A DNA stretch of 49,329 nt from an uncultured delta proteobacterium (GCA_963772655.1 CAVYYE010000009.1:278343-327671), one strand, 5' to 3'; counted from the first letter of the stretch, positions 2,220 through 49,329 are shown. Notes: generated from the sequence alone by a model not told the origin. Program-made: numbers and translations.

Positions 2220-2435
2220 GCGTAACGGTCTCTGCAGATCTCGATCCGTTACAGGCGACGCGATTCTTGCCTGCGAGATTCCGCTACAAGACGGTGCCGC
2301 CCTTCGTGGTGCAGACGTCCGCCGAGGCGACATAGCGGTGAGGGCGATCATGGTTCCCGCGCTCGCCGGGGATCAGGTGTTCGGCGACATGTGAAATCGC
2401 GCACGACGTGCGTCGGGACGGTCGCGCGCAGAGCG

Positions 2436-3314: not shown

Positions 3315-3325
3315 CGAGATCACGG

Positions 3326-5091: not shown

Positions 5092-5093
5092 GT

Positions 5094-6113: not shown

Positions 6114-6160
6114 GTGCCCGCAACCCTAGCCACCTCAAATGGCGCATCGGCAAAACCAAT

Positions 6161-6178
6161 GTGGCGGGACGGTGACGG
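6161..6178 (-). promoter_or_regulatory. Pho-box-like direct repeat upstream of pstS (CCGTCAC-CGTC-CCGCCAC on the minus strand)
   Basis: Two 7-bp repeats with 11-bp periodicity, resembling the E. coli Pho box CTGTCAT-N4-CTGTCAC. Ends 48 bp upstream of the pstS ATG. Confidence 0.4.
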
Positions 6179-6224
6179 TCCGGAGATCGCCTTGCGATGC
6201 CACTTTGGCTGACGGAAGGTTCGC

Positions 6225-6942
6225 CTAGTTGGACGTGGGAATCGGTCGATGCCTGAGATCGGTGGCACGGACCATGTAAATGACCTCTTCGGCGAGGTTC
6301 TTGACGTGGTCTCCGATCCGTTCGAGGTAGCGGCAGACCGAGGTCAGCGGGAGTACCCGGGTCACCGCCGCGGGATCGGTCGCCACGTGAGCGATCAACT
6401 CCGCGAATAGGCTGGCATTGAGTCTGTCGATCTCGGCGTCCGCCGTGATCACCGCGGTCGCGCCGTCGGCATCGCGCTTGACGAAGCTATCGAGCACTGC
6501 CTGAAGGTTGTTCTGCACCAGCTGCGCGAGGTGCGGAAGGTCGACCTGGGGTTCGGTGCCCGGCAACCCGTTGATCTCGATCGCTCGTTTGGCGATCCCG
6601 GCGGCCAGATCTCCGATCCGTTCGAGGTCGACCACGAACTTGAGCGACATCGTGATGAACCGGAGATCGCTCGCGACCGGTTGACGGGTTGCCAGGATCT
6701 GGAGCGCGAGCTCGTCGACCTCGTTCTCGTCGAGATCGATCAGCTCGTCGGCCTTGATCACTTCTTGTGCGAGTGCATCGTCGCGGTTGGACAACGCCTT
6801 CATCGCATCGGCGATCTGCTTGCGCGGCGCGCTCGCCCATCGTGGCGAGGCGCTCGCGTAGCGTGCGCAGCTCCTGTTCGAAGTCTCGGCTGGTGTGGGC
6901 GGTCGTCACGAACCCCGGTTGTACTCGACAATTCGAAACCAT
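6225..6942 (-). pseudogene. phoU: phosphate uptake regulator PhoU, interrupted by a +1 frameshift near 6826-6836
   Basis: The N-terminal frame (HTSRDFEQELRTLRERLATMGERA) and the C-terminal frame (KQIADAMKALSNRDDALAQEV...) align without gaps to E. coli PhoU once one base in GCGCCGCGCAAG is removed. Confidence 0.7.
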
Positions 6943-13221: not shown

Positions 13222-13228
13222 TGGACGG

Positions 13229-14881: not shown

Positions 14882-14900
14882 GGTGGACCGAGGTAGCAAA

Positions 14901-16709
14901 GTGGCGACCGTAACCACAACGCGCCGCAGCCACATCGATCCGAAGGATCTCCCGGAAGTTCAGCGCGCGACGCTGCGCAGGATCTTCACATACCTCCGTC
15001 CGTATCGTGCACAGACGATGCTGGTGGTGGCCGCGATCGTGTTGAGCGCGGGGCTCGGACTCACACCGTCGCTATGCATCAAGGCGATCGTCGACGACGC
15101 GATTCCGGGGGCCAACCGGACCGAGTTACTCGTACTCGCGGGCGCGATGATCGCCGGGCCGCTGCTCGCCGGGTTGCTCTCCGTGCTCCAGCGCTACATG
15201 GCCGCGTACATCGCGGAGCACGTGATGTACGACCTGCGCAACCAGGTCTTCCGTCACGTCCAGAGACAATCGATCAGCTACTTCATGACCGCGCGCCCCG
15301 GGGAGGTCGTGTCGCGCGTGCTCAACGACGTCCAGGGTGTCGGCCAGATGCTGCGAGACAACCTGGTCAAGGTGCTCCAGAACGCGCTCGTCGTCGCGAC
15401 GGCTGCCGGGGCGATCCTGTGGCTCGACTGGCGTCTCGCGATCGTCGCGCTCGCCCTGTTGCCCGCGTTCATCTTGCCGACCCGGAGGATCGGCCAGCGG
15501 CGCAAGAAGCTGAAGCGCCGTGCCCAGGCCTCGCTCGCCGAGGTCACGGGCGTGCTCCTCGAGACGCTGTCGGTTTCGGGTGCGCTGCTCGTCAAGGTGT
15601 CCGGCTCCGAGGAGCACGAGGCCGCCCGCCTCGAGGAGAAGACCAGCGAGCTGCGCGAAGTCTCGCTGCGGCACAACCTCGTCGGCCGCTGGTTCCAGAT
15701 GCTGATGAAGTGGTTCGAAGAAATCGGACCCGCGCTGATCTACGCGTTCGGTGGCTGGCTCGTGATCAGCGGCGAGCTCGCGCTCGGCACGGTGGTCGCG
15801 TTCGTGGCGCTGCTCAAGCGCCTGTACTCGCCGGCCTCCGACCTCGCGACCGTGCGGGTCGACGTCGTCACGTCGTACGCGTACTTCGATCGGATCTTCT
15901 CGGTCCTCGACCTCGTGCCCGCGATCCGGGATGCGCCCGGTGCCGAGCCGTTGCGCGAGGCGCAGGGGGCGATCCGGTTCGAGCACGTCTCGTTCTCGTA
16001 TCCCGGTGGCGACGGCGCCACGCTCGAGAACATCGACCTCGACATCGCACCGGGTCAGTGCGTGGCGCTCGTCGGACGTTCGGGGGCGGGAAAGAGCACG
16101 CTCGCCGCGCTGGTGTCACGGCTCTACGACCCGATCGAGGGTCGGGTCCTCGTCGACGGACACGATCTCCGCGCGCTCCAGGTCGCGTCGGTACGCGCAC
16201 ACATCGCGGTCGTCACCCAGGAGACCTACCTGTTCCACGAGAGCATCCTGGAGAACCTGCGGTACGCGCGGCCGGAGGCGACACGCGAACAGATCGAGGA
16301 GGCCGCTCGGTCCGCCCAGATTCACGACTTCATCGCGAGCCTGCCGGAGGGTTACGACACGGTCGTCGGCGATCGCGGCTACCGACTCTCGGGCGGCGAG
16401 CGACAGCGTCTCGCGATCGCGCGCGCGTTGCTCAAGGATCCGAGGATCCTCATCCTCGACGAAGCGACGAGCTCCCTCGACAGTCACAACGAGCTACTGA
16501 TCCAGAGCGCGCTCGAACCGCTCCTCGCGAATCGCACGAGCCTCGTGATCGCGCACCGGCTGTCCACGATCCGGAAAGCGAACCTCATCGTGGTGCTCGA
16601 CAAGGGGCGGATCGTCGAGCTGGGAACGCACGAGCAGCTGTTGGGGAACACCGGCCGGTACGCGGAGCTGCTGCGCGAGCAGCAACGCGCGGCTGACGGG
16701 GCCGATTGA
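14901..16709 (+). CDS. ABC exporter, fused permease/ATPase (MsbA/MdlB type)
   Basis: Six-TM domain followed by an NBD with GRSGAGKST, LSGGERQRLAIARAL and ILILDEATSSLD. GTG start after a GAGGT Shine-Dalgarno; the ORF extends to 14676. Confidence 0.8.
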   Translation: MATVTTTRRSHIDPKDLPEVQRATLRRIFTYLRPYRAQTMLVVAAIVLSAGLGLTPSLCIKAIVDDAIPGANRTELLVLAGAMIAGPLLAGLLSVLQRYMAAYIAEHVMYDLRNQVFRHVQRQSISYFMTARPGEVVSRVLNDVQGVGQMLRDNLVKVLQNALVVATAAGAILWLDWRLAIVALALLPAFILPTRRIGQRRKKLKRRAQASLAEVTGVLLETLSVSGALLVKVSGSEEHEAARLEEKTSELREVSLRHNLVGRWFQMLMKWFEEIGPALIYAFGGWLVISGELALGTVVAFVALLKRLYSPASDLATVRVDVVTSYAYFDRIFSVLDLVPAIRDAPGAEPLREAQGAIRFEHVSFSYPGGDGATLENIDLDIAPGQCVALVGRSGAGKSTLAALVSRLYDPIEGRVLVDGHDLRALQVASVRAHIAVVTQETYLFHESILENLRYARPEATREQIEEAARSAQIHDFIASLPEGYDTVVGDRGYRLSGGERQRLAIARALLKDPRILILDEATSSLDSHNELLIQSALEPLLANRTSLVIAHRLSTIRKANLIVVLDKGRIVELGTHEQLLGNTGRYAELLREQQRAADGAD

Positions 16710-35134: not shown

Positions 35135-36976
35135 GTGCGGCGGTCTCGGAGTGAGGACGACGGTCCAGTAGTAGGTCGTTCGACCCACTGGCTCCTCGTC
35201 GGCCTCGCGCTGCTGACGTACCTCGCGAGTTGCACCGGCAACGGAGACGCTCGACCCGAGCCGACGAAGGCAGATCGCGCGGCCGTCGTCGAGCAGTCCG
35301 CGATGCACCTCCGGCATGCCAACGCGAAGCCGCCAATCGCGTGCAAGGCGTGCCACGAGCAGGTCGCCGGCGAGTACCTGCCTGCCACCAACTGGCAGTG
35401 CCAGCAGTGCCACGCGACCGAACCGATCGCGATCCACGACCGCGCGGGGGTCGATAGCCCGGCGCGCGAATGCTGGAGCTGCCACGACTTCACGTCGACG
35501 AAGGAACGCGTCACGCCGTGCATCGACTGCCACGCCAAGCCGCAGGGCGCGATCGCCGCGATCGCCCCGCACGATGCGAGCAAGCCGAACGAGGACTGCG
35601 CCACCTGCCACCGCGCACATCGCCAACCCGCCCTGGTGGCGACGAAGTGCGAGACCTGCCATCACGAACCCGTCAGCGGACACGACAAGGCCCGCAACCT
35701 GATCACCGGGTGCGCGAGCTGCCACGGCTATCACGAGAAGGCGGCGGTCGCGTCGACCCGCTGCACCAACTGCCACCGGCAATCGCGCGCGCGCGTACCG
35801 GCCACCGCGACGTTCGCCAAGGGTCACGTCAACTGCGTCACCTGCCACCGCCAGCACCGGTTCGCCAAGTCCGAGGTCCTCGCGTGCCGCGGCGAGTGCC
35901 ACGCCACGCAGGTCGCACTCGCCGAGACCAAGGTGCCGCAGCACCGCTGCACCGGATGCCACAACCAGCACGACGTCCGCGGGTCACCGGCGAAGTCGTG
36001 CGAGACCACGTGCCACGCCAAGTTGATCCCCGCGCATCCTCGCGATCGCGCGACCAAGACGCGGTGCCTGGGATGCCACGAGCCACACCGTGGGCCGGGC
36101 GCCCCGATCGCCGTCGCGTGCTCGCGATGTCACGTGGCGGCGAGCTCGGATCGCGCATTCCACCAGGGCGCGCAGAGTCGCGGACCGGAGTGCCGGAACT
36201 GCCACCAGCCGCACGCGTTCAAGAAGACCACCGCCGATGTCTCGTTGTGTCGGACCTGCCATGGCCCACAGCCGTTCCCCAACGCGAAGACGATCGTCAC
36301 GTTTGCCAAGCACGACAACTGCTTCGGGTGCCACGGCAAGACGGTCGCGCACCGGCCCGCCGGCCCGCGCGCCGAGTGCACGTCGTGCCACACCGACAAG
36401 GCCGGCAAGGTTCGCAAGGGCCACGCCCGCTGCGTCGGCTGCCACGACCCGCACACCACCAAGCAACGCTCGCCGTGCGCGACCTGCCACCCGACCGAGG
36501 CCTCGATCGCGTTCAAGGATCACCGCAACTGCATCAACTGCCACGAGCCACACGGCGGCACCCAGAAGCGCGCGTGCGGTAGTTGCCATACCAAGGAAGC
36601 CGCCACCGCCCCGGCGAAGCACCAGCAGTGTACGAACTGCCACGACCAGCACAGCACGCGCGTCAAGCGGTCATGCGGGTCGTGCCACACCGATCGAACG
36701 ACCGGCGTCCACGCGAAGCGACCGTGCCTCGACTGCCACCGGCCGCACGGCCCGCGCGGACCGGCATCACCGCCGGCGTGCACCAACTGCCACCACAACC
36801 TGCCGCTCATGCACCAGGTGCCGGCGCACAACACCTGCACGACCTGCCATCGCTCGCACGGCGAACAGCCGTACAAGCAGCGCGCGACCTGTCTGTCCTG
36901 TCACAAGGACCGCGCGAACCACAAACCGAACATGCCGCTGTGCTCGGCGTGCCACAACTTCGGAGGTGCTACGTGA
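35135..36976 (+). CDS. multiheme c-type cytochrome lipoprotein (~29 CxxCH / CxxxCH sites; doubled-CXXCH, Geobacter-type repeats)
   Basis: Lipobox LASC. 29 heme-binding motifs in 613 aa, many as CxxCHxxH units. GTG start. Confidence 0.8.
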   Translation: MRRSRSEDDGPVVGRSTHWLLVGLALLTYLASCTGNGDARPEPTKADRAAVVEQSAMHLRHANAKPPIACKACHEQVAGEYLPATNWQCQQCHATEPIAIHDRAGVDSPARECWSCHDFTSTKERVTPCIDCHAKPQGAIAAIAPHDASKPNEDCATCHRAHRQPALVATKCETCHHEPVSGHDKARNLITGCASCHGYHEKAAVASTRCTNCHRQSRARVPATATFAKGHVNCVTCHRQHRFAKSEVLACRGECHATQVALAETKVPQHRCTGCHNQHDVRGSPAKSCETTCHAKLIPAHPRDRATKTRCLGCHEPHRGPGAPIAVACSRCHVAASSDRAFHQGAQSRGPECRNCHQPHAFKKTTADVSLCRTCHGPQPFPNAKTIVTFAKHDNCFGCHGKTVAHRPAGPRAECTSCHTDKAGKVRKGHARCVGCHDPHTTKQRSPCATCHPTEASIAFKDHRNCINCHEPHGGTQKRACGSCHTKEAATAPAKHQQCTNCHDQHSTRVKRSCGSCHTDRTTGVHAKRPCLDCHRPHGPRGPASPPACTNCHHNLPLMHQVPAHNTCTTCHRSHGEQPYKQRATCLSCHKDRANHKPNMPLCSACHNFGGAT

Positions 36977-37629
36977 AGCGTTGCGTTTTGCGGTGGCTCG
37001 TCGCCGGCGCATCGATCGCCGTCGCGCTACTGGCGTGTTCTTCCCCCGTCGACGATTCCGAGGAGGCCTATCCGATGCCGCCGGAGTCGCGCGCGGTGCC
37101 CGCCGCACCGAACCCCGCTGACCAGGCACCGCTGCTGGTGCCCCCACCGTTCGAGTGCCGCGGCGTCCGCGACGACGAGCATGCGGGTGCGGAGCAGTAT
37201 CCGGTGCCGAAGCCGCCGTTCTCGTTCGGCGTGTTCCCGTGCACGCGGTGCCACGACAAACCCGACGACTTCAACCCGAAGCCGCGCCACCTGGTCTCGA
37301 TGCACCAGAACATCCAGCTCGCGCACGGCCCGCGCGAGCAGTGGTGCTACGACTGCCACAACCCGACGTACCGCGACAAGCTGCGGCTCGCCGGCGGACG
37401 GCTGGTCAGCTTCGAACGCTCGTACGAGCTGTGCGGCCAGTGCCACGGCGAGAAGCTGCGCGACTGGCGCTACGGGATCCACGGGCGCCGCATCGGGTGC
37501 TGGAACGGCCAGCGCCAGTACCTGTTGTGCGTGCACTGCCACAACCCGCACGCACCGCACTTCCGCCCGATGCATCCCAAGGCGCCGCCGGAGCGCCCCG
37601 CCGACATCCACCTCTCGAGGAGCGAGTGA
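36973..37629 (+). CDS. tetraheme c-type cytochrome lipoprotein
   Basis: GGAGGTG Shine-Dalgarno. Start overlaps the upstream stop (GTGA). Lipobox LLAC. Four CxxCH motifs (CTRCH, CYDCH, CGQCH, CVHCH). Confidence 0.7.
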   Translation: MKRCVLRWLVAGASIAVALLACSSPVDDSEEAYPMPPESRAVPAAPNPADQAPLLVPPPFECRGVRDDEHAGAEQYPVPKPPFSFGVFPCTRCHDKPDDFNPKPRHLVSMHQNIQLAHGPREQWCYDCHNPTYRDKLRLAGGRLVSFERSYELCGQCHGEKLRDWRYGIHGRRIGCWNGQRQYLLCVHCHNPHAPHFRPMHPKAPPERPADIHLSRSE

Positions 37630-38579
37630 TGACCCGACTACGCCACAAGTTGCCCGTCGTCTACGACGAGCCACCCGCCGAGCCATCCGGCGACGGCGGA
37701 GGCCAGAGCCGTCGCGCGTTCCTCCAGATGTTCGGCAAGGTCGCCGCGCTCGGCATGTTCGCCGCGTGCGACGAGGAGACCCGCGAGCGGATCTTCCGGG
37801 GCAGCTTTCGCGAGCTGTCTCCCGACGAGATCAAGCGGTACATCGCGCGCCTCGAGCGCGAGTACAAGGACACCTACGGTGTCGACGTGCGGGTCGGCGC
37901 CGAACCACCGATCGAGGGCGTGGTGTTCGCGTACGCGCTCGATCTCAGTCGCTGCATCGGGTGCCGGCGGTGCGTCCACGCCTGCGTCGAGGAGAACAAC
38001 CAGTCGCGCGATCCCGAGATCCAGTACATCACCGTGCTCGAGATGGAGAAGCGCCACGGCGTCGACCTCGAGCGCGCCAACGCCTACTACGACCCACTCC
38101 AGGTCCCGCGGCCGGGCCACTTCTATCTCCCGGTCGCCTGCCAGCAGTGCGACAACGCGCCGTGCGTGCGGGTGTGTCCCGTCGGGGCGACCTGGAAGGA
38201 GCCGGATGGCGTGGTCGTGATCGACTACGACTGGTGCATCGGCTGTCGCTACTGCATGGCGGCGTGTCCGTACGGTGCGCGCCACTTCAACTGGACCGAG
38301 CCCAAGCTCACGACCAAGGACCTCAACCCCAACACCCACGTGCTGGGCAACCGACCGCGACCCAAGGGCGTGGTCGAGAAGTGCCACTTCTGTTTGCACC
38401 GCACGCGCAACGGTCGCTATCCGGCGTGCGTCGAGACCTGTCCGGTCGGCGCGCGCAAGTTCGGCAACCTCCTCGATCCGAACGGCGAGATCCGCCGCGT
38501 GATCGACAACAAGCGGATCTTCGTCCTCAAGGAGGAGCTCGATACCAACCCGAGGTTCTTCTACTTCTACGGGGTGTAG
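37629..38579 (+). CDS. Tat-exported 4Fe-4S ferredoxin-type subunit (HybA/PsrB/ActB-like)
   Basis: Twin-arginine motif SRRAFLQ. Multiple CxxCxxCxxxCP clusters (CIGCRRCVHACV, CQQCDNAPCVRVCP, CIGCRYCMAACP, CHFCLHR). Confidence 0.8.
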   Translation: MTRLRHKLPVVYDEPPAEPSGDGGGQSRRAFLQMFGKVAALGMFAACDEETRERIFRGSFRELSPDEIKRYIARLEREYKDTYGVDVRVGAEPPIEGVVFAYALDLSRCIGCRRCVHACVEENNQSRDPEIQYITVLEMEKRHGVDLERANAYYDPLQVPRPGHFYLPVACQQCDNAPCVRVCPVGATWKEPDGVVVIDYDWCIGCRYCMAACPYGARHFNWTEPKLTTKDLNPNTHVLGNRPRPKGVVEKCHFCLHRTRNGRYPACVETCPVGARKFGNLLDPNGEIRRVIDNKRIFVLKEELDTNPRFFYFYGV

Positions 38580-38582
38580 GTC

Positions 38583-39797
38583 ATGAAGTTCGTCAAGTTC
38601 ATCGTCGACAGCGCGCGCGCCCTCCTCGGAAAGAAGGTGACGTTCTACCTCTGGCTCGGTGCGCTCGTGGTGATGCTGGCGATCGGCATCGACGCGTACG
38701 CCGATCAGTACAAGAACGGCCTGATCGAGACCAGCATGCGCGATCCGGTGTCGTGGGGGTTCTACATCGGCAACTTCACGTTCCTCGTCGGCGTCGCCGC
38801 GGCCGCCGTGGTGCTCGTGATCCCCGCCTACGTCTACGACTGGAAGCCGATCAAGGAGATCGCGCTGATCGGAGAGCTCCTCGCGATCACCGCGATCATC
38901 ATGTGCGTGATGTTCGTGACCGTCGACGTCGGCAACCCGCTACGCGTGTGGCACATGCTCCCGTTCGTCGGCTCGCCAAACTTCCCGTACTCGCTGCTGG
39001 CGTGGGACGTGGTGGTGCTGAGCCTCTACCTCCTGCTCAACCTGACGATCGCGACCCACATCATGTACCGGTCGTACCGGAACAAGCACTACAGCAAGAA
39101 GTTCGCGCTCCCGTTGATCATGTTCTCGATCCCCGCGGCCGTCGGCATCCACACGGTGACCGCGTTCCTGTTCGCCGGGCTACCGTCGCGCAGCTACTGG
39201 AATGCCGCGATCCTCGCGCCGCGGTTTCTGACCTCGGCGTTCTGCTCCGGTCCCGCGATCATCCTCGTGCTGCTCCAGATCCTGCGCCGCACGACGCGAC
39301 TCAAGGTCACCAACGAGGCGCTCTACAAGATCGCGGAGCTGATGGCGTACGCGATGTTCGTCAACCTGTTCCTGTTCGGCGCCGAGGTGTTCCGTGACTT
39401 CTACTCGTCGACGCGCGAGGTCATCCACTACCAGTACCTGTTCGGCACCGGCGAGTACTCCAACTCGCCGATCGCGATGTACGGCTGGTCGGCGTTGATC
39501 TTCAGCCTGGTCGCGTTCCTGCTGTTCCTGATCCCGCGGACGCGCAAGAACCTCGTCACCCTCAACATCGGCGCGGTGTTGATCTACTTCGGCGTCTACA
39601 TCGAGAAGGGCGTCGGCCTCGTGATCCCCGGGTTCACGCCGTCGACGCTCGGCGAGATCTATCACTACGCGCCGAGCTCGACCGAGCTGAAGGTGTCGAT
39701 GGGGATCTTCGCGTTCGGCGCGATCCTGTTCACGCTGATGGTGACCGTCGCGACCAAGTTCCTGTTCGCGAACCCCAAGCTGCAGGGCGAGCACTAG
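38583..39797 (+). CDS. NrfD/PsrC-family integral membrane (quinone-interacting) subunit
   Basis: 404 aa with about ten TM helices. Immediately downstream of the FeS subunit. Confidence 0.8.
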   Translation: MKFVKFIVDSARALLGKKVTFYLWLGALVVMLAIGIDAYADQYKNGLIETSMRDPVSWGFYIGNFTFLVGVAAAAVVLVIPAYVYDWKPIKEIALIGELLAITAIIMCVMFVTVDVGNPLRVWHMLPFVGSPNFPYSLLAWDVVVLSLYLLLNLTIATHIMYRSYRNKHYSKKFALPLIMFSIPAAVGIHTVTAFLFAGLPSRSYWNAAILAPRFLTSAFCSGPAIILVLLQILRRTTRLKVTNEALYKIAELMAYAMFVNLFLFGAEVFRDFYSSTREVIHYQYLFGTGEYSNSPIAMYGWSALIFSLVAFLLFLIPRTRKNLVTLNIGAVLIYFGVYIEKGVGLVIPGFTPSTLGEIYHYAPSSTELKVSMGIFAFGAILFTLMVTVATKFLFANPKLQGEH

Positions 39798-40766: not shown

Positions 40767-41453
40767 TCACTTCTGCTTCTTCACGATCTCGAGGTTCTTG
40801 CACGCCACCTGCGAGCCCAGCTTGCACGCCTTGCCGAGCAGCTCGATCGTCTTGGGCTTGTTCCTGGGCACGACCTTGCCCTCGAAGTACATGATGCCGA
40901 GCTCGGTGCAGCCGCGCGCCTGGTCGAGCTTGCACGAGCGCTGGAACAACCCGAACGCCTTCTGCAGATCCGGCTTCACGCCCTCGCCTTCGCGGTACAC
41001 GTTGCCGAGGTTGAAGCAGCCGAGCCCGTCGTCGAGCTTGCACGCCTTCTCGTAGAACCCGCGCGCCTTGACGTGATCGACCTTGGGTGCGCCTTCCTTA
41101 CCCTCCGACCACGACGTGCCGAGGTCGTTGCACGAACCGCCGTCGCCGAGCTTGCACGCCTTCTCGCGCAGCATGCGGGCCTTGGGAACGTCGCGCTTGC
41201 CGCCCTGCCCGAGCATCACCATCGTGCCGGCGAACCCGCAGCCCAGCGCGACCCCGAGCTTGCACGCCCGCAGGTAGAACCGCACCGCCTTGGCCTCGTC
41301 CTTGTCGGCCAGGTACTGCTGGCCGATCGTCAGGCACACCTTGCCGCGGCCGGCGCCGCACTGCTTGAGCTGCGCGCGCGTGGGGGCGTCCGCCCGCGCC
41401 ACCTGGGCCACCCCCAAGATCCCCGACAGCACGCATATCGCGATCGTCCTCAT
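40767..41453 (-). CDS. Sel1-repeat (HcpA/HcpC-like, Cys-rich) secreted protein
   Basis: Signal peptide, then six repeats of KACxLGxxxGCxxLGxxYxxGxGVxxD. Confidence 0.8.
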   Translation of the reverse strand: MRTIAICVLSGILGVAQVARADAPTRAQLKQCGAGRGKVCLTIGQQYLADKDEAKAVRFYLRACKLGVALGCGFAGTMVMLGQGGKRDVPKARMLREKACKLGDGGSCNDLGTSWSEGKEGAPKVDHVKARGFYEKACKLDDGLGCFNLGNVYREGEGVKPDLQKAFGLFQRSCKLDQARGCTELGIMYFEGKVVPRNKPKTIELLGKACKLGSQVACKNLEIVKKQK

Positions 41454-41559: not shown

Positions 41560-41641
41560 GCGATTGTGGCGGAATTGGTAGACGCGCTGGATTCAGGTTC
41601 CAGTGGGTAACACCGTGGGGGTTCGAGTCCCCCCAATCGCA
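41560..41641 (+). tRNA. tRNA-Leu (CAG)
   Basis: Acceptor GCGATTG/CAATCGC, D-arm GCGGAATTGGTAGACGC, anticodon loop TTCAGGT, long variable arm, T-arm GGGGGTTCGAGTCCCCC. Nearly identical in its 5' half to E. coli tRNA-Leu(CAG). Confidence 0.85.
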
Positions 41642-41699
41642 CGACGCTCTTCGCCCCTTGGCAAAAGGGGCGAACGTCGTTTTCGGGCGTCCGGAAAAC

Positions 41700-42040
41700 G
41701 GACCGACCCGATTTCGTTTCCGGATTCGGAGGCACTGCGATGTAGCGCTCCAGTGGGTGACCGCTCGCCGAGCTTCTCGACCACGCGGCGCGAGCTCATC
41801 CGCTTCTGCGTTCCCGGCTGTACGTAGTGCGCGTGGGTGACCACCGCCGACGTGTGACCGAGCGCGCTCGCGACCGCGTGCGAGGACACCCCCGCCTCGG
41901 TCGCCAGCGTCGCGTGCAGTCCCCGCAGGCTGTGCACGCACACCCGCGGGATCTCCGCCTCGTCGCACAGCACGCCGAGCCAATGACGGAGCCACTGCCG
42001 GTTGCGCCGGTTGCCACGCGGCGTGACCTCGCGGGTGATC
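41700..42040 (-). pseudogene. tyrosine recombinase (phage integrase) C-terminal fragment, N-terminally truncated
   Basis: HSLRGLHATLATEAGVSSHAVASALGHTSAVVTHAHYVQ carries the HxLR...LGH...HY catalytic motifs. The coding frame upstream of ~42040 is replaced by rhs sequence. Lies just 3' of tRNA-Leu. Confidence 0.6.
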
Positions 42041-43272
42041 AGCTGCTCTTCGATCTCGAAAATGGCACGCAGGCCGTCAAGCACGTGTTTGCCGGCTCGA
42101 CGCGGGTCGCCAGCGAGTTGTCGAAGTTCGAAAGCGGCGAGGATCCGACCGCCCCCGACAGACCCGGCACTGCCTACTTCTTCCACTCCGACCATCTCGG
42201 TTCGACGTCAGTGCTGACCGACGAGAACGGAACTGTTCAGGAGTCGCTCGAGTACTTCTCCGATGGTGAGACGTGGATCGACCGCGGTCCGTCCAAGCCT
42301 ATCAACGGGTACCTGTTCAGTGGCAAGCCGTTCGATCCCGACTCGGGGTTCTATGACTTCGGGCAACGCTTCTATGAGCCGCGAACGAGCCTGTGGGTAG
42401 GAGTTGACTCAGCCCTTAGGGAAGAAGCCAACAGATCCATTGGCAACCCCTCTTTCCTTGCTTCACAGGCATACGCTGCCCACAAGCCCGTGACACTCGC
42501 AGATCCCGATGGGAGATGTCCGGGGTGCGTAATCGTCATATTTATTCTCCTAAACTCCGAGGGAGAAGCGGGTGAGAACGCAAAACCACATCCTACGAAT
42601 TGGCAAGTTCTCATGGGCGCGGTTACGACTGCGACGGCTGCTAAGTTCTTTATTGGGATAAACAATGCTGCTGCAGCGGGAGTATCATCCCGACTTGGCA
42701 CTGGAGTGGTTGCTCGGAGAGTGGCAGGCGCTGTCGGTGGAGCGGTAGGTGGTGCAGCTACGGGACCGGTTGCTGTTGCCGGCAACGACATTGCGCATGG
42801 CCAAATCAGTTCGCTGGGGACATATGCCAAGGCCGGGGCACTTGTGGGTGGACTCTCAGGTGCGATTTTCCCGGGAAGTGTAGGTACCCGAACAAGAATA
42901 GCGGTCGCCCGCGACCCCTTCTCGATTAAAGCAACGGTAGCTGGAGACGCAAGAGCGTTCGCACGGATTGAGGTCGAGGGTTCAGTAGCTAACGTGACCG
43001 ACGTATTTCGTGGCGGCCTTCCGCCAGGGGGTGGCTCCGACCTCGTAGCCGCGGCGCTCCGAGAATCTGGTGTAAAATCCGGCGGCCAACTTGTGTTCTC
43101 TAATATCCAAAACGCACCGACACAAGCCACGTTCGCCGCTGGGGGCAACCCGGCCACTTCGGTCCTTGGGCAGACGGGCACACGTGCCCTCAAACAACTC
43201 GGCTTGCGACCCAGCAACTTCGCCTTCCAAGAAGTTGGCGGGAAGCTCAACCTCGTCATAGGGATCCAGTGA
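41983..43272 (+). CDS. orphan rhs 3' fragment: end of the RHS core (..YFFHSDHLGS..PFDPDSGFYDFGQRFYEP..DPDG) plus a variable C-terminal toxin domain with a Gly/Ala-rich hydrophobic segment
   Basis: RHS repeat-associated core C-terminal signature followed by the DPDG demarcation, then a 250-aa CT containing VLMGAVTTATAAKFFIGINNAAAAGVSSRLGTGVVARRVAGAVGGAVGG. No N-terminal RHS body. An internal ATG at 41983 is a possible start. Confidence 0.6.
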   Translation: MTEPLPVAPVATRRDLAGDQLLFDLENGTQAVKHVFAGSTRVASELSKFESGEDPTAPDRPGTAYFFHSDHLGSTSVLTDENGTVQESLEYFSDGETWIDRGPSKPINGYLFSGKPFDPDSGFYDFGQRFYEPRTSLWVGVDSALREEANRSIGNPSFLASQAYAAHKPVTLADPDGRCPGCVIVIFILLNSEGEAGENAKPHPTNWQVLMGAVTTATAAKFFIGINNAAAAGVSSRLGTGVVARRVAGAVGGAVGGAATGPVAVAGNDIAHGQISSLGTYAKAGALVGGLSGAIFPGSVGTRTRIAVARDPFSIKATVAGDARAFARIEVEGSVANVTDVFRGGLPPGGGSDLVAAALRESGVKSGGQLVFSNIQNAPTQATFAAGGNPATSVLGQTGTRALKQLGLRPSNFAFQEVGGKLNLVIGIQ

Positions 43273-43622
43273 AGTACTTCTCAGATACAGATGCGCGCCT
43301 CATCGAAGCGCTGAAGCTAGACCCCAATGCCGAGCCTGGTTTTGAGGTCCTCAAGGGTTGTCTGATCTGGTCGGATGAAGTGCCCGAAGGACTATCTCGG
43401 TCTGGGCACGAGCGCCTCAATGATCTGCTTGCTGCTCGGGGATTAATGCACCTCGGACAAGACCTGTCACAAATCCCAGAGCCATATCGAAACGCCTGGT
43501 TGGCAGCCACGGATTCCAAAATCGCCTGGCCGGGATTTCAGCGTCTTGTCCTCTCACCTGCAGAACGTCGGTATTTGGAGAATGAGATTCGATTGCTGGA
43601 AGAGTGGGACGGACCGCTGTGA
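43269..43622 (+). CDS. putative immunity protein for the rhs-CT toxin (hypothetical)
   Basis: 117 aa in lower-GC DNA. Start overlaps the toxin stop (GTGA). Confidence 0.4.
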   Translation: MKYFSDTDARLIEALKLDPNAEPGFEVLKGCLIWSDEVPEGLSRSGHERLNDLLAARGLMHLGQDLSQIPEPYRNAWLAATDSKIAWPGFQRLVLSPAERRYLENEIRLLEEWDGPL

Positions 43623-43625
43623 CTT

Positions 43626-44876
43626 GTGAGAGTTGAAATGCAGAGCCCTCAATGCTCTCGGAGAGACCAACAACGCTCTGGCTCTTATCGGCGGCCAATG
43701 GATCCCATTCTGAGAACCATCGCAATGGTGGATAGAGACATCGACATATCTGCGGTTCTCGCAGAGCCGCATAGTGAATCGGTTCGTCAAGTGTATGCGG
43801 ATTCCTTGTTGGAACGCGGCAATCCGAGAGGTGAGTTTATCAGCCTTCAGCTAGCTGCCGCGCGAGGCTCGAGAGATTCCCAAGCAGGTCAACGCGAAAG
43901 CGTGCTACTCAGCAGATACTCTCAACAGTGGATGTTCCATCCGGAATGGTGGCATTTGCGATGGAAACAGGGATTCGCAGATACACTCGAGGCCGGTTTT
44001 CTAGAGCCTTCTGCATCGCTCAATCCCGCCACAACCGATTTTCTTCGATCCCATGGGGTTCTGAACGAGCGTGACAAATGGGAAGGCTGTTTTCTTGAGA
44101 ACTTCTTTTCATTAGTCGAAGCCCGCCTGCTCACCAGTGCGCACATAGTTCTGACAGACTTCATTCAATCAGCTGCCGCCTTGGTAAACGCCATGGGCGC
44201 CAATGGACCACTTCGGCTTTCGAGATTGACTGTGGAATCCCGTTACGCACGACTGGGTCCTCAGTCAACAGCAGTATCATCAACATTTCAGGGACTGGCA
44301 TTTCCATCGCCAGGCACTCAAGGCTGGCCGCTTGTTTCCTCGTCGGCGCTCTCAAGATTCAGCAAAGCAACGCCGTTCCTTAGCGAACTACGTTTGGCGC
44401 TGCCGGGGTTCCTTAGCAGCTTTCAACATGCGCAGCTACAGAGGCTTAAGATCTACGGACACCGGACCATCTCGGATTCTGATAACAATATTGTGATTGA
44501 CGCAAGGAGTCTGCGCTCGCTGGAACTTACTATCGACACACCAATCGATGAGTCGCCGGTACTTCCCGTGGAATCATTGGTTCTCGACCCTGACAGGCTG
44601 CCGAGGCTGCAAGAACTTGCACTCTGCGGTGGCGAGTATGTCACCTCCGAGAAGACGGTAGCCCGTTGGGTCGCTGGCCAGCCGATACTTCGTCAACTGC
44701 GAGTTCTGTGGATCCCGGAGATTTCCGATCAGGACGACGCAGCGTCGTTGGGGCAACGATTTCGACATCTCGATCGGATCGTAGTCCAACGAGTTGGACA
44801 ACCACGCTCGTTGCTCGAACAACACCTTCCGCAACTCCGTGTTTTACCACAAGTAGCTTGCTGGACACCTAGCTAG
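43626..44876 (+). CDS. TIGR02996 (repeat-companion) domain protein with C-terminal LRR-like repeats
   Basis: N-terminus ILRTIAMVDRDIDISAVLAEPHSESVRQVYADSLLERGNPRGEFISLQ matches the Gemmata-type TIGR02996 domain. C-terminal LxxLxL repeats. Lower GC. The alternative start MDPILRTIA at 43698 is more likely. Confidence 0.5.
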   Translation: MRVEMQSPQCSRRDQQRSGSYRRPMDPILRTIAMVDRDIDISAVLAEPHSESVRQVYADSLLERGNPRGEFISLQLAAARGSRDSQAGQRESVLLSRYSQQWMFHPEWWHLRWKQGFADTLEAGFLEPSASLNPATTDFLRSHGVLNERDKWEGCFLENFFSLVEARLLTSAHIVLTDFIQSAAALVNAMGANGPLRLSRLTVESRYARLGPQSTAVSSTFQGLAFPSPGTQGWPLVSSSALSRFSKATPFLSELRLALPGFLSSFQHAQLQRLKIYGHRTISDSDNNIVIDARSLRSLELTIDTPIDESPVLPVESLVLDPDRLPRLQELALCGGEYVTSEKTVARWVAGQPILRQLRVLWIPEISDQDDAASLGQRFRHLDRIVVQRVGQPRSLLEQHLPQLRVLPQVACWTPS

Positions 44877-44890
44877 ATTGCGGTGCAAAA

Positions 44891-44913
44891 CAGCCACGCA
44901 AGTGGCTGGATTT
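44891..44913 (+). terminator. candidate rho-independent terminator
   Basis: Stem CAGCCAC / GTGGCTG, loop GCAA, then GATTTCG. Confidence 0.3.
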
Positions 44914-44999
44914 CGATCATGTCACCGTCGGGAGCACGTCCGAATCGACGCTTCCGGATCGACACCGATCGCTGAATGTGATCAGTAGTGATGGATGAC

Positions 45000-45335
45000 G
45001 GCACGACGACGGCGTGGGCAGACGTCCTTCAATGACTGGTTCGCGTTCGGAGGAGTTCCTCGGCCCGAGGAGCTGATGGATCCGGTGCTCAAGCAGCTCG
45101 ACGGAGTGCTCGATGACGAGGGTCTGGTCGATCGCGTCTTTGCGGCGCTCTCGAAGCGCCACCAGGAAAGTGCTCGCACTGGGCGACCGAGCACGCCGGC
45201 GGAGGTGGTGCTGCGAATGCTGGTGCTCAAGCACCTTCGCGGCTGGAGCTACGAGCGCTACGAGCAGCTGCAGTGGGAGGTGACGGGCAATTTCCTGTAT
45301 CGCCGGTTCTGTCGCATCGACGGAGGCGACCACAT
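45000..45335 (+). pseudogene. IS5/IS1182-family transposase N-terminal (InsH_N / DUF772) fragment
   Basis: VVLRMLVLKHLRGWSYERYEQLQWEVTGNFLYRRFCRI matches the DUF772 motif. Ends abruptly at 45330, fused in frame to a duplicated toxin segment. Confidence 0.5.
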
Positions 45336-45579
45336 CCTACGAATTTGGCAGCTCCTCATGGGCGCGGTTACGACTGCGACGGCTGCCAAGTTCTTTATTG
45401 GAATAAACAATGCTATTGCAGCGGGAGTATCCTCCCGACTTGGCACTGGAGTGGTTGCGCGAAGAGTGGCGGGCGCTGTCGGTGGTGCTGTAGGTGGTGC
45501 AGTTACGGGACCGGTTGCTGTTGCCGGCAACGACATTGCACACGGCCAAATCAGTTCGCTGGGGACATATGCCAAGGCC
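45331..45579 (+). repeat. ~250-bp duplicate (~93% identical) of the rhs-CT toxin hydrophobic segment 42587..42834
   Basis: Direct comparison: cacatcctacgaat...catatgccaaggcc is shared, with a 1-nt indel and a few substitutions. Downstream it continues as a different short C-terminus (..APLLGALVGGFFGAAFHRKPHQQQMSPT, stop 45663). Confidence 0.8.
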
Positions 45580-45815
45580 CCGCTATTGGGCGCTCTCGTG
45601 GGCGGATTTTTTGGTGCGGCTTTCCATCGGAAGCCTCACCAACAACAGATGTCACCAACGTAACTCGCTGGGGACGAAAAGGGCTTGAATCAGGTGATTG
45701 GGTGATGAAAGGTGAGAACACCTACGGTAACTACCTCAAGTCCGGTAAGTTTCAGCCTAGGTGGCAGTGACCTGCCCGGGTTCTGCGGACCATCGGGATC
45801 TAGAAGATTGCGCTC

Positions 45816-46670
45816 CTAGTTGAAGTGCTGTGTAGCGGACTCTTCGGTTGCCTGTTTCCTCTTGAACTCGATCGGAGTCAAGTAGTCGAGGCTGGAGTGT
45901 GGCCGCACCTCGTTGTAGTGACGTCGCCACGCCTCGATGACGACGACCGCTTCGGTGCGGCAGCGGAACCATTCGAGGCTCAGGCACTCGTCGCGCAGCT
46001 TGCCGTTGAAGCTCTCGTCGAGCCCGTTCTGCCACGGCTTGCCCGGATCGATGAAGGCTGTCTCGATCCCCTCGTCGGCGAGCCACTGCAGGATCGCTCT
46101 CGCGACGAACTCGGGGCCGTTGTCGGAGCGCAGATAGCGAGGTGCGCCGTGGACGCTGACGAGCCGTGCGAGCACCTCGATGACCCGTCGAGACCGAATC
46201 GCGCCGGCGACGTCGATCGCGAGACACTCGCGCGTCCACTCGTCGACGACGGTGAGGCACTTGAGCTGGCGGCCGTCGGCGCAGGCGTCGAACACGAAGT
46301 CGATCGCCCACACGTGATTCTTCGCCGTCGGCGGGGTCGGCCGAGGTCGTCCCGTGGCGATACGTCGACGAGGTCGCTTGCGTGGGACCTGGAGCTTGGC
46401 CTTCTTCCACAGGCGATGGACCCGATCGGCACTGATCGGCTTGCCGAGCGCCCGCGCGAGGAAGATCCGGATGCGGCGATAGCCGTATCGCGGGTACTGC
46501 GCCGAGAGCTCGCGCATCTTGGCGATCACCGGCGCGTCGAGCTCGTCGCGCTTGGACTCGTACTCGAGCGTCGACCTCGCCGTGTCGAGCAGCGCGCACG
46601 CTCGTCGCTCCGACAGGCCGCGCCGTTTGGCGTACGCGACCTGCCGGCGACGGACGGGCGCGCTCACCAT
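45816..46670 (-). CDS. IS3-family transposase OrfB (rve integrase core); OrfAB fusion by programmed -1 frameshift
   Basis: A AAA AAA at 46671-46677 (minus strand) followed by ATG GTG in the -1 frame. DDE core motifs. Also has its own ATG at 46670. Confidence 0.8.
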   Translation of the reverse strand: MVSAPVRRRQVAYAKRRGLSERRACALLDTARSTLEYESKRDELDAPVIAKMRELSAQYPRYGYRRIRIFLARALGKPISADRVHRLWKKAKLQVPRKRPRRRIATGRPRPTPPTAKNHVWAIDFVFDACADGRQLKCLTVVDEWTRECLAIDVAGAIRSRRVIEVLARLVSVHGAPRYLRSDNGPEFVARAILQWLADEGIETAFIDPGKPWQNGLDESFNGKLRDECLSLEWFRCRTEAVVVIEAWRRHYNEVRPHSSLDYLTPIEFKRKQATEESATQHFN

Positions 46671-46927
46671 TTTTTTGCGTGGATCTCCTTGAGCACGTCG
46701 ATCTCGAGCAGCCGATCGGCGAGCAGCTTCTTGAGCTTGGCGTTCTCGCCCTCGAGCGCGCGGAGCCGTTTGGCGTCGTCGGCGTTCATCGTGCCGAACC
46801 TGCGCTTCCACGCATACAAGGTCGGCACGCTGACCTTGTGCTTCTTGGCGACCTCGGCGACCGGGTGCGCATCGGTCTCGCGGAGGATCTGGACCATCTG
46901 CTCGTCGGTGAATCGGCTCTTCTTCAT
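46664..46927 (-). CDS. IS3-family transposase OrfA (HTH)
   Basis: MKKSRFTDEQMVQILRE..LKKLLADRLLEIDVLKEIHAKKW. Ends at the A7 tract. Confidence 0.8.
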   Translation of the reverse strand: MKKSRFTDEQMVQILRETDAHPVAEVAKKHKVSVPTLYAWKRRFGTMNADDAKRLRALEGENAKLKKLLADRLLEIDVLKEIHAKKW

Positions 46928-47007
46928 CGCGGACTCCGTTTCGTCAGGACGGAGCGTCAACTTTCTCGATCAGGCTGGCCAGTTTTTGGCCGGGCAGGTC
47001 AGCACCT

Positions 47008-47069
47008 GAGGACACCCCCGCCTCGGTCGCCAGCGTCGCGTGCAGTCCACGCAGGCTGTGCACGCACAT
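47008..47069 (-). repeat. 62-bp copy of the integrase segment 41883..41944 (encodes CVHSLRGLHATLATEAGVSS), one mismatch
   Basis: Direct sequence identity. Bounded by the IS3 end on one side and rhs core sequence on the other. Confidence 0.8.
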
Positions 47070-47070
47070 C

Positions 47071-48096
47071 GAGCTCCACTTCCACGGCCTTGCCAACAAT
47101 CTGCTCGCTTCGGTCGCCTACGACGGAACCGTGCGAGCGAACTTCCGCTACTCACCGTTCGGCGAAGTCATCGAGGCACAGGGCACCGTTCCTGGCTCCC
47201 TCACTCGGCGCTTCAACGACAAGCACCAAGACGCCGTCAGCGAGCTCCACTACTACGGGCTCAGATACTACGATCCCCTAAGCCTCACGTGGACGCAAGC
47301 CGATCCCCTGTTTCGATTCGTCCCGGATCTCGCGAAACAATCTACGCCCCGACGCGCGCATCTGTACGAGTTCAGCCTCAACAACCCGGTACGCTACATT
47401 GATCCGGACGGAGCAAACCCGGCTCCAGTCCCCGTACCGGAGAGTCCGCAAACCCTCCAACAACGGGCGCTTGCTTCACGCATCGCTGATGAGGACTGGA
47501 CAATAAAGTTTGCGGAGGTCCCCGCCGGAACGTACTCATCGCCCAATCTGTTCGACACGAGCTGCCAGCCGCCAAGCTGCTATAACGACGTCCACCAAGA
47601 CAACTTCGATGATCCGAACGCCACGATGGCGATGCAGACCATCGATCCTCAGTATCGTGATTACTGGTTTCAGGATCCGGGATGGATCGTTAAGGGACCA
47701 GCACTAATCATTGGAATAGTCGCCGTTGGTTTGGAGCTAGGGGTGGGAGAGGGTATCGCGATTGGCAGAGGTGCTGCAACCACTACCGCGACGACTGGAG
47801 AAGCGATAACCGCCGATACCGTCCAGAACGCTGTCGCTAATTCCTGTATGCTCAGCCAGCAGACAACGGTCTCACTTCCCGTCGTTGAGAACTACGTACA
47901 GCGACTTCTCGGAGGAGAAGTTGCTCCTGCAATTAGAGTCGCAGGCAACGTAATCGTCGATGGAGTGCATCGATACGTGGCAGGCAGTATCGTCGGACAA
48001 TTGCCCGCGACAATGGAGTGGGCTGCCCCAATGAGTGCCAACCTCTATCCTGTATGCAAACTCGGGGTTGACGTTGTAGACTGGGGCAACAGATGA
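47071..48096 (+). CDS. second orphan rhs 3' fragment with a different C-terminal toxin domain
   Basis: ..YSPFGEV..RRFNDKHQDAVSELHYYGLRYYDPLSLTWTQADPL..NPVRYIDPDG is the canonical RHS core end. The 230-aa CT is unrelated to the first. Lower GC. No proper start (GTG at 47131 is possible). Confidence 0.6.
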   Translation, partial: ELHFHGLANNLLASVAYDGTVRANFRYSPFGEVIEAQGTVPGSLTRRFNDKHQDAVSELHYYGLRYYDPLSLTWTQADPLFRFVPDLAKQSTPRRAHLYEFSLNNPVRYIDPDGANPAPVPVPESPQTLQQRALASRIADEDWTIKFAEVPAGTYSSPNLFDTSCQPPSCYNDVHQDNFDDPNATMAMQTIDPQYRDYWFQDPGWIVKGPALIIGIVAVGLELGVGEGIAIGRGAATTTATTGEAITADTVQNAVANSCMLSQQTTVSLPVVENYVQRLLGGEVAPAIRVAGNVIVDGVHRYVAGSIVGQLPATMEWAAPMSANLYPVCKLGVDVVDWGNR

Positions 48097-48533
48097 TTCG
48101 AATTTTCTGTGATACTGGGAAACACGTCATCATTAATACTGACACCTTGGTGGGAGCCGATCTGCGCGGACGGGATCTTCACCGTGCTCGGCTCAGCAAC
48201 ATTGATCTGACTGGTGCTCAACTCACAGACGCTAATTTGCGTGGTGCGCTCCTCAACGGAGCTGTCCTGGTTGGTGCAGATTTGGAGCGAGCGAGACTGA
48301 TGGCGGCGCAGTTGGTAGGAGCAAACCTCTGCGGAGCCAATCTAAAGCAAGCCTGGCTCAATGCCGCGATCTTGAAGAACGCGAGTCTCCAGAAAGCAGA
48401 CATGCGTGAAGCACGTTTGGACCACGCGACCTTGGAAGGTTCAGATCTGACGCACGCGAAGCTAAGCCGCAACGCTCTAACCGTCGCCAGTAACGCAGAC
48501 GTGCTCGGTTTAGAGTTGGTGGAATGGGAATGA
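48093..48533 (+). CDS. pentapeptide-repeat protein (candidate immunity protein)
   Basis: Tandem A(D/N)LxG pentapeptides (ADLRGRDLHRARLSNIDLTGAQLTDANLRGALLNGAVLVGADL...). ATG overlaps the toxin stop (ATGA). Confidence 0.7.
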   Translation: MIRIFCDTGKHVIINTDTLVGADLRGRDLHRARLSNIDLTGAQLTDANLRGALLNGAVLVGADLERARLMAAQLVGANLCGANLKQAWLNAAILKNASLQKADMREARLDHATLEGSDLTHAKLSRNALTVASNADVLGLELVEWE

Positions 48534-48870
48534 ACACGCTGATACGATCGAGTGTGAGCGAGCGCGGTACGTGAGGCTGTGACTCGTGTGACTCCCATCG
48601 TGATCACGCCGCCACCCGAACCGACTTGCGCAGGTGTCCGATCGCTGGAGCACACAGTGTCCTTGCGGCTGTGAGCGTCCGGTGAACCGCACCCGGAGCG
48701 GTCTTCGGAGTCCCTTTCGCACGCGCCGTGGGTGTCAAGAGGCGGGTGTACTGGCCGCGCAAAGGGCGGCCAAACTGGCCGCGTGATCGAGTGTTCGCCG
48801 GCGCGATGATCGGCGTGTTCGACTCCACGCAAAGAGGCGGCCAAACTGGCCGTCACGCCGCTCGGCCGAC

Positions 48871-49329
48871 TGACCTGCCCGGGTTCTGCGGACCATCGGG
48901 ATCTAGAAGATTGCGCTCCTAGTTGAAGTGCTGTGTAGCGGACTCTTCGGTTGCCTGTTTCCTCTTGAACTCGATCGGAGTCAAGTAGTCGAGGCTGGAG
49001 TGTGGCCGCACCTCGTTGTAGTGACGTCGCCACGCCTCGATGACGACGACCGCTTCGGTGCGGCAGCGGAACCATTCGAGGCTCAGGCACTCGTCGCGCA
49101 GCTTGCCGTTGAAGCTCTCGTCGAGCCCGTTCTGCCACGGCTTGCCCGGATCGATGAAGGCTGTCTCGATCCCCTCGTCGGCGAGCCACTGCAGGATCGC
49201 TCTCGCGACGAACTCGGGCCCGTTGTCGGAGCGCAGATAGCGAGGTGCGCCGTGGACGCTGACGAGCCGTGCGAGCACCTCGATGACCCGTCGAGACCGA
49301 ATCGCGCCGGCGACGTCAATCGCGAGACG
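48871..49329 (-). mobile_element. second IS3-family copy, left end only (runs off the window); ~99% identical to 45768..46226
   Basis: Identical IRL TGACCTGCCCGGGTTCTGCGG and OrfB C-terminal coding (48919..49278 on minus). Confidence 0.85.

Follow-up and report, generated by a model that had tools for sequence, protein, structure and literature searches.

An integrase-coding repeat beside two orphan Rhs tips

Two fragments of rhs genes, each reduced to the end of the core and a toxin tip, lie in a 49,329-nt stretch of DNA from an uncultured delta proteobacterium (GCA_963772655.1, CAVYYE010000009.1:278343-327671; the whole stretch is called the window here), and both are joined to remnants of a tyrosine integrase gene that share one short, nearly identical segment. 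The locus therefore raises the question of whether this segment is a site at which rhs-tip cassettes are captured or a leftover of the vehicles that brought the tips. We favour the second answer and give a probability of roughly 0.6 to the reading that two related tRNA-Leu islands with rhs toxin/immunity cargo were stacked in tandem and decayed to integrase/rhs remnant fusions. The shared 61-nt segment is then best read as a coding-sequence relic of two island-integrase copies, not as a functional site.

A repeat search and a DNA search of the window both aligned positions 41882-41942 with 47008-47068 at 60 of 61 bases. These were the only two copies in the window, and none of 100 shuffled sequences contained even one match. 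An earlier note on this DNA had reported a near-identical pair of 62 bp with one synonymous change; the pair and the change are real, although the length is 61 rather than 62 and copy 1 starts at 41882, not 41883. The sole mismatch, C at 41923 against A at 47049, turns CGG into CGT on the minus strand, both coding for Arg, and leaves a longest uninterrupted exact run of 41 nt; identity ends after 61 nt, where the next base is C at 41943 and T at 47069. Both copies lie on the minus strand to the right of a tRNA-Leu gene, 5126 nt apart, and both encode CVHSLRGLHATLATEAGVSS, the HxxR block of tyrosine integrases. In copy 1 the block lies inside the PF00589 match (profile positions 100-168 of 172), which bore out the assignment to the catalytic stretch of a tyrosine recombinase. 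This is the most conserved block in our alignment of the integrase family. In orthologues from other species the amino acids of the block are kept at a nucleotide identity of only 83-85%, which, set against 60 of 61 here, points to a recent common origin of the two gene copies and not to convergence. The exact 61-nt pattern had no match among metagenome contigs.

The first copy belongs to a ~400-nt 3' remnant of an integrase gene that is convergent with tRNA-Leu(CAG). This remnant covers roughly residues 307-380 of a relative 380 aa in length and has a tail besides. It is 85% identical over 74 aa to that relative, the integrase of locus L002 (tblastn), and 38 integrase homologues were collected at E <= 1e-5. 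The remnant keeps the HxxR, second His and Tyr regions, and its PF00589 score of 25.3 bits is below the gathering threshold of 27.1; copy 2 keeps 20 residues. Searches with the integrases of L002 and L004 (tblastn) found the first Arg and Lys regions nowhere in the 49-kb window and no integrase homology beyond the two relics, hence no 5' part. As members of PF00589 are expected to hold the residues R..K..HxxR..H/W..Y within one intact protein, both copies are, judged from their sequence, homologous relics and not functional members of the family.

At both places the integrase sequence is joined directly, and with the same polarity, to rhs core sequence that reads away from it on the plus strand. 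The switch is as abrupt as the earlier note had described, falling 106 nt past the repeat in copy 1 and immediately after it in copy 2. The first junction (J1) is at 42048/42049: homology to full-length integrase relatives stops at 42048-42051 and Rhs homology runs from FDLENG at 42049, with Rhs homologues of up to 3974 aa aligning from query residue ~45-51 (about 42031-42049). The second junction (J2) lies within 47062-47069. Rhs homologues begin there at T/H/I-ELHFHG (47062-47068), so that up to 7 nt at J2 could be shared microhomology. The host flank and the integrase remnant (69.0%) share a GC content of 69%; it drops exactly at the junctions, to 60% in the Rhs cores and further to 54-58% in the tips and candidate immunity genes.

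Of the Rhs core, each fragment retains no more than the final ~115-155 codons, which run to the PxxxxDPxG motif; past this motif homologues diverge. Both TIGR03696 matches are above cutoff. Rhs proteins of 400-3974 aa show homology only over their last ~115-170 core residues, and what lies upstream in the window is antisense integrase. P0040, a bona fide Rhs protein with RHS_repeat and TEN_YD-shell domains, is 76% identical to the second core end and 46% identical over 64% of a query spanning 47008-48096. There is no full-length rhs gene in the window. By these sequence features both fragments qualify as predicted orphan Rhs toxin tips, with a core end, the motif and a variable tip and without an N-terminal or YD-repeat body.

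Two further ideas about the junctions were considered and rejected. The Rhs sides of J1 and J2 (TCGATCTCGA and TCGAGCTCCA) look alike, and were rejected as a site because they lie ~40 residues apart in core coordinates. A conserved fusion protein running across the junctions was likewise rejected: in a frame check the relation between the antisense integrase frame and the Rhs frame differed between J1 and J2, so that no fusion product is conserved.

Stacked tRNA-Leu islands as the probable source of both copies

Under the reading we favour, a small integrative island would target the 3' end of tRNA-Leu, and the islands of this lineage would carry polymorphic-toxin/immunity cargo transcribed away from the integrase gene. 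Successive site-specific integration (accretion) would most likely have placed two of them in tandem to the right of tRNA-Leu(CAG), each bringing its own near-identical integrase. In each unit a single deletion would have taken the 5' part of the integrase gene, the intervening DNA and most of the rhs gene; in the distal unit an IS3-linked rearrangement would later have removed the integrase 3' part and the att fragment and left 61 nt. We speculate that tolerance of such deletions, or an advantage from them, makes them recur: they inactivate the toxin and lock the island in place while sparing the tRNA and the immunity gene.

The arrangement of the locus fits this scheme. In each unit the integrase has lost its 5' part, and directly against what remains of it stands an Rhs core end, with a tip and a candidate immunity gene behind; both copies show the orientation and order expected for tandem units, with the integrase relic first and the Rhs tip reading away from it. 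The GC steps at the junctions fit as well, and so do an insertion sequence beside copy 2 that lacks a target duplication and at least four illegitimate joins within 5 kb of this region. The integrase 5' part is missing from the rest of the window and from a complete related island (L076), which indicates that it was deleted or replaced and not split off by an insertion. It is more likely that the integrase was the vehicle's own gene, one per island, than that a resident gene captured cassettes. The integrase open reading frame (ORF) extends ~50 nt into the tRNA-Leu 3' end in antisense (41593-41642), with a C-terminus ending in ...GGTRTPTVLPTGT, and the same read-through into tRNA antisense is seen in L004 (10393-10444) and L076 (3773-3824), so that the att core overlaps the 3' end of the integrase gene.

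Relatives of the integrase supply the closest parallels. The nearest come from Kofleriaceae and other Myxococcales assemblies, and in the closest of them (L002-L006, L075 and L076) the gene converges with a tRNA-Leu gene ~100 nt away, and its ORF ends in tRNA antisense. L002 holds a full-length gene of ~380 codons. L073 contains two truncated integrases, 91% identical over 407 nt, each followed by a 3' fragment of tRNA-Leu, and repeated units of an integrase 3' end plus att were found in L012 (a 98-nt att repeat), L013 (44- and 21-nt repeats) and L071 (a 455-nt repeat in three copies). L076 shows an entire island, 3.8 kb long and delimited by a 28-nt repeat of the tRNA 3' end; beyond its cargo no integrase 5' part follows. 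In all five loci with such direct repeats (L073, L076, L012, L013 and L071) the repeat that bounds the islands is the tRNA 3' end. The tandem relics of L009 and L012 have near-equal cut points, and L073 and L076 each have a partial twin (L074 and L077, respectively). Viral contigs held no relative of the integrase, which leaves a prophage origin without support.

One locus of the wider integrase family has an unusual neighbourhood of its own: in L029, from a Polyangia metagenome-assembled genome, 27 tRNA genes are packed into 3.3 kb (13076-16392) downstream of the integrase.

Toxin cargo beside related integrases

Polymorphic-toxin cargo that points away from a 5'-truncated integrase recurs in the tRNA-Leu clade. 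In L004 a full SpvB-TcdB-RHS gene, pointing away from the truncated integrase, starts ~4.5 kb upstream of it. Between the two integrase relics of L073 lie an Rhs tip and a Barstar gene, within ~300 nt of the second relic and directed away from that one. In L076 a toxin piece directly abuts an integrase cut at residue ~169; it comprises the final 80 residues of a toxin domain, shows homology to the tip of the Rhs protein P0177 and comes with a small overlapping ORF. In the more distant locus L028, genes for an RNase of barnase type and for Barstar lie upstream of an integrase that is cut at residue ~260. The proposal that rhs tips are found repeatedly beside the same recombinase thus held for the association itself, which recurs in L004, L073, L076 and L028, whereas capture next to a resident gene is the less likely way in which it arose.

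A possible further case was left out of this count. Between two tiny integrase relics beside a tRNA-Leu(TAG) gene, L009 encodes a 1448-aa protein followed by a small ORF (2120-6466); the protein reads away from the proximal relic and the two could be another toxin/immunity pair, and no protein family supports its identification as a toxin.

Several observations weigh against the stacked-island reading. The two Rhs core ends of the window had no match within 10 kb of the integrase at any of 71 genome loci (tblastn). That first test was too narrow, as the cargo of L004, L073 and L076 came to light with wider queries and metagenome loci; even so, the wider Rhs query set matched only L004 and L028 among the genome loci, and the broader family is mostly without toxin cargo. 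The flank of L002, with its full integrase, contains no toxin, the cargo of the L071 tandem array proved unrelated when considered as a toxin, and none of the relatives that we found had an rhs gene immediately next to a full integrase in an intact island. In the window the two relics point the same way and lie to one side of the tRNA gene, as accretion predicts, but att-bounded units are missing: a second copy of the tRNA-Leu 3' end was not found at up to 3 mismatches or by short-word BLAST. With no att fragment beside copy 2, we infer accretion as its route of arrival by analogy with the relatives, and the order of events and any selective reason for the deletions are likewise inferred. Finally, two separate deletions from integrase to Rhs core are needed.

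IS3 copies, repair and assembly as possible other sources of copy 2

The second Rhs cassette (47002-48870) is bracketed, like the interior of a composite transposon, by two insertion sequence (IS) copies of the IS3 family, IS3a and IS3b. Elements of this family are expected to have OrfA (HTH) and OrfB (rve DDE) in overlapping frames, terminal inverted repeats (IRs) starting with TG and a target duplication of 3-5 bp. OrfA, OrfB and 12-bp IRs are present here. IS3a is flanked by CAG and GCA and thus lacks a target-site duplication, which fits a later rearrangement. These elements suggest another source of copy 2, namely that they imported or duplicated it, together with the Rhs2-CT2-immunity cassette, from another copy of the same island in the genome, by composite transposition or by recombination between IS copies, with no site-specific accretion at this tRNA gene. 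The two same-orientation copies with 456 of 459 identical bases, the missing duplication as a mark of IS-mediated rearrangement and the absence of an att fragment near copy 2 are all as such an import would have it, and the integrase family is multi-copy in related genomes. Within those genomes, however, paralogues are only 35-50% identical in protein, so that a donor with 98% identity would have to be a very recent duplicate. Moreover, the 6 nt that separate the relic from the IS indicate at least one more join that is not IS-made, and the orientation and order of the relic are those of a tandem unit. The right end of IS3b and its flank lie beyond the window end, which puts the duplication expected of a composite transposon outside what the window can show. 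We regard import by IS3 as unlikely, while giving it more weight than any other alternative discussed here.

Short repeats occur at 48736-48860, with GGCGGCCAAACTGGCCG present twice and a tandem pair of 24 nt. They are similar to what lies immediately within the left end of the IS3 element and may be debris of a related IS end.

Copy 2 itself is a short patch with non-homologous joins on both sides, six further unassigned bases next to it and 98% identity to sequence 5 kb away. Such a patch could be filler DNA, copied from the resident integrase remnant during the end-joining repair that made the join between the IS3 side and Rhs2, in which case a second integrase gene never existed. Tandem integrase relics are common in the relatives, however, and the orientation of the patch and the adjoining Rhs tip mirror copy 1. 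That the sole difference is synonymous also fits divergence under selection in a working gene, a single change being weak evidence. We consider filler DNA very improbable.

An assembly error at one or both joins, caused by the short repeat, is in our view scarcely credible. The independent record is thin: a Logan contig (L001, from ERR11594398) matches 47340-48899 at 100% and stops 29 nt into IS3b, and as it starts past J2, and was the sole contig recovered, no independent assembly record of J1 or J2 was found. Its left stop inside the core end may reflect further copies of this core end in the sample, for example in a full rhs gene. Against an artefact, copy 2 has foreign sequence on both sides, so that a single wrong turn in the assembly graph is insufficient, and the mismatch in mid-repeat limits exact sharing to the 41-nt run. 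The contig reaches 327,671 bp and was assembled through at least one complete 1.2-kb IS copy and the start of a second, and equivalent junctions occur in unrelated assemblies (L073/L074 and L076/L077).

Junction positions and cassette capture

The earlier note had also suggested an integrase-associated recombination hotspot for cassette acquisition. On such a model a site in the integrase gene, or the recombinase, would capture rhs-tip cassettes successively in the manner of an integron or a polyimmunity locus. Two integrase/rhs joins of the same polarity within 5 kb invite this idea, and L073 and L076 offer further cases of a toxin piece next to a truncated integrase. Recombinases adjoining polyimmunity loci have indeed been proposed to help accumulate immunity genes (PMC3482391). 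The positions of the junctions speak against it. Integrases are cut at residues of about 169, 257, 307 and 341 in the different cases, and the Rhs or toxin breakpoints also differ and fall at non-homologous positions. J1 and J2 themselves lie 106 bp apart in integrase coordinates and ~40 residues apart in the Rhs core, in unrelated sequences. No motif or repeat is common to the junctions or cassette ends; a search with a seed of 10 and a minimum length of 14 returned no shared direct or inverted repeat and no attC-like or dif-like repeat at the cassette ends. The window contains no intact recombinase, and past the cassettes the integrase 5' part does not reappear. The att repeat of the relatives is the tRNA 3' end, which in the window lies ~300-400 bp from either junction, and not a site coding for the catalytic domain. 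The 61-nt segment is, furthermore, coding sequence embedded in a longer remnant in copy 1, which disfavours it as a hotspot. Capture at the integrase gene is therefore an improbable account of the locus.

One coincidence of position deserves separate mention. Copy 1 is cut (42048/42049) at the same nucleotide as the first remnant of L073 (2541/2542), just before GAGCAGCTGATC, a near-palindrome matching at 10 of 12 positions, despite only 73% identity between the two remnants; the partner sequence differs, and the L073 tRNA-Leu fragment is of the TAG type rather than CAG. This would favour a hotspot, yet we estimate the probability of one exact coincidence among ~9 breakpoints at roughly 0.1, which is compatible with chance or with a fragile site. 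A bolder version would have units of toxin/immunity genes, integrase 3' end and tRNA-Leu fragment mobilised as cassettes in trans by an intact paralogous integrase, with the tRNA-Leu loci of this Kofleriaceae-type lineage as integron-like collectors of orphan Rhs tips and immunity genes and GAGCAGCTGATC as a preferred breakpoint. The identical cut in the window and L073, the near-equal cuts in L009 and L012 and the many integrase copies per genome speak for this idea, which we hold to be improbable.

Relation to known systems

In comparison with orphan rhs-CT/rhsI and cdiA-CT/cdiI modules, the window shows the same layout of a core end up to PxxxxDPxG, a variable tip and a small, overlapping candidate immunity gene of lower GC, and, as in orphan rhs-CT/rhsI modules, transposase and integrase remnants between modules. 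It differs in that its modules follow an integrase remnant by a tRNA gene, with no full rhs gene upstream in the window, and in that the core fragments are fused head-to-head with antisense integrase. That orphan tips are able to recombine onto a full rhs gene comes from work on Salmonella, as related in a preprint that cites it.

Decayed islands are well known to accrete in tandem at tRNA genes (PMC5704250). The stacked islands proposed here resemble accretion elements and CIMEs in having repeated units by one tRNA gene, the older ones decayed (PMC5704250), and the units of the relatives (L073, L012, L013 and L071) end in a truncated integrase and a tRNA 3' fragment. Unlike those systems, the distal unit of the window has lost its att fragment, the units are very small (3-5 kb), and the tRNA-Leu clade carries polymorphic toxins instead of transfer genes.

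Recombinase-associated polyimmunity arrays likewise have toxin remnants and candidate immunity genes beside a tyrosine recombinase gene, and Xer- and IS-associated poly-immunities receive a mention in a preprint. In the window, by contrast, all that is left of the recombinase is two relics of a tRNA-targeting island integrase, and no conserved repeat flanks the cassettes. The locus is also unlike an integron-like array, as it has no intact recombinase, only 3' relics, and no boundary site at the cassettes. The integrase ORF running into tRNA antisense recalls phage Mx8 of Myxococcus, in which attP overlaps the int gene; Mx8-type integrases differ from ours in that viral contigs hold no relative and the islands seen, of 3-6 kb, have no phage genes.

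All parts of the locus are thus of known kinds: orphan Rhs tips, a decayed tRNA-targeting integrase, IS3 and IS5 debris, accretion and the proximity of recombinases to polyimmunity genes. The observation that prompted this analysis was correct, and its explanation is largely ordinary, namely the decay of stacked mobile islands, with no new recombination mechanism revealed. What it adds is an integrase lineage repeatedly found with polymorphic-toxin cargo in Kofleriaceae-like myxobacteria, and an origin for the two orphan Rhs tips of this genome, which are apparently the residue of small tRNA-Leu islands whose integrases are now relics. This should help to annotate such loci and to study how immunity genes are retained while toxins are lost.

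Features of the locus and neighbouring genes

The features of the region are collected in Table 1.

Table 1. Features from the tRNA-Leu gene to the right end of the window
Feature	Position	Strand	Evidence and remarks
tRNA-Leu(CAG)	41560-41642	+	ARAGORN; the island probably targets the 3' end (attB/attL)
Integrase copy 1, 3' remnant	41593-42048	-	PF00589, E 1.5e-5; tblastn; homologues P0002-P0038
Repeat copy 1	41882-41942	-	Encodes CVHSLRGLHATLATEAGVSS
Rhs core end 1	42049-42513	+	TIGR03696, E 1.5e-8; PxxxxDPxG at 42484-42513
CT1, variable C-terminal tip 1	42514-43272	+	No Pfam match; glycine-rich, hydrophobic; GC 58%; homologues stop at DPDG motif
Candidate immunity gene 1	43269-43622	+	Start overlaps CT1 stop; no family match; GC 54.8%; function from position only
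416-aa protein, island cargo	43626-44876	+	NCBIfam TIGR02996, E 6.1e-8
IS5/ISNCY-type transposase, N-terminal fragment	44995-45328	+	PF05598, NF033593/NF033581; joined at ~45329 to partial tip copy
CT1', partial diverged copy of CT1 middle	45329-45625	+	Against 42585-42871: 88% over 297 nt; 93% in core 45345-45579
IS3-family copy a (IS3a)	45768-47001	-	1234 bp; 12-bp terminal IRs TGACCTGCCCGG; Pfam HTH_Tnp_1, rve, rve_3; OrfA and OrfB
GCACCT, 6 nt	47002-47007	.	Between IS3a end and relic; no match to the equivalent integrase place in copy 1
Repeat copy 2	47008-47068	-	Isolated relic of second integrase copy; non-homologous joins on both sides
Rhs core end 2	47069-47412	+	TIGR03696, E 4.4e-16; PxxxxDPxG at 47383-47412
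CT2, variable C-terminal tip 2	47413-48096	+	No Pfam match; P0040 similarity extends past core end into CT2
Candidate immunity gene 2, pentapeptide-repeat protein	48093-48533	+	PF00805, E 1.8e-27; ATG overlaps CT2 stop; role from position only
IS3-family copy b (IS3b)	48871-49329	-	Same orientation as copy a; 456/459 bases identical; cut by window end

Pentapeptide-repeat proteins are known to protect DNA gyrase. The presence of such a protein as the second candidate immunity protein raises the idea that CT2 might target a topoisomerase. In the first unit, the 416-aa TIGR02996 protein could be a second immunity-type gene. Farther along, a single ORF (44995-45663) combines the N-terminal transposase fragment of IS5/ISNCY type with CT1', an illegitimate join that points to a third toxin-tip cassette.

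Just left of the tRNA gene, direct repeats with a period of 108 nt (40767-41453) correspond to the 36-residue repeats of a Sel1-repeat protein encoded on the minus strand. At 35135-39797 a gene cluster includes a 613-aa multihaem cytochrome c, after which come more large ORFs, and beside the cluster an ORF at 39794-40732 matches DUF1152.

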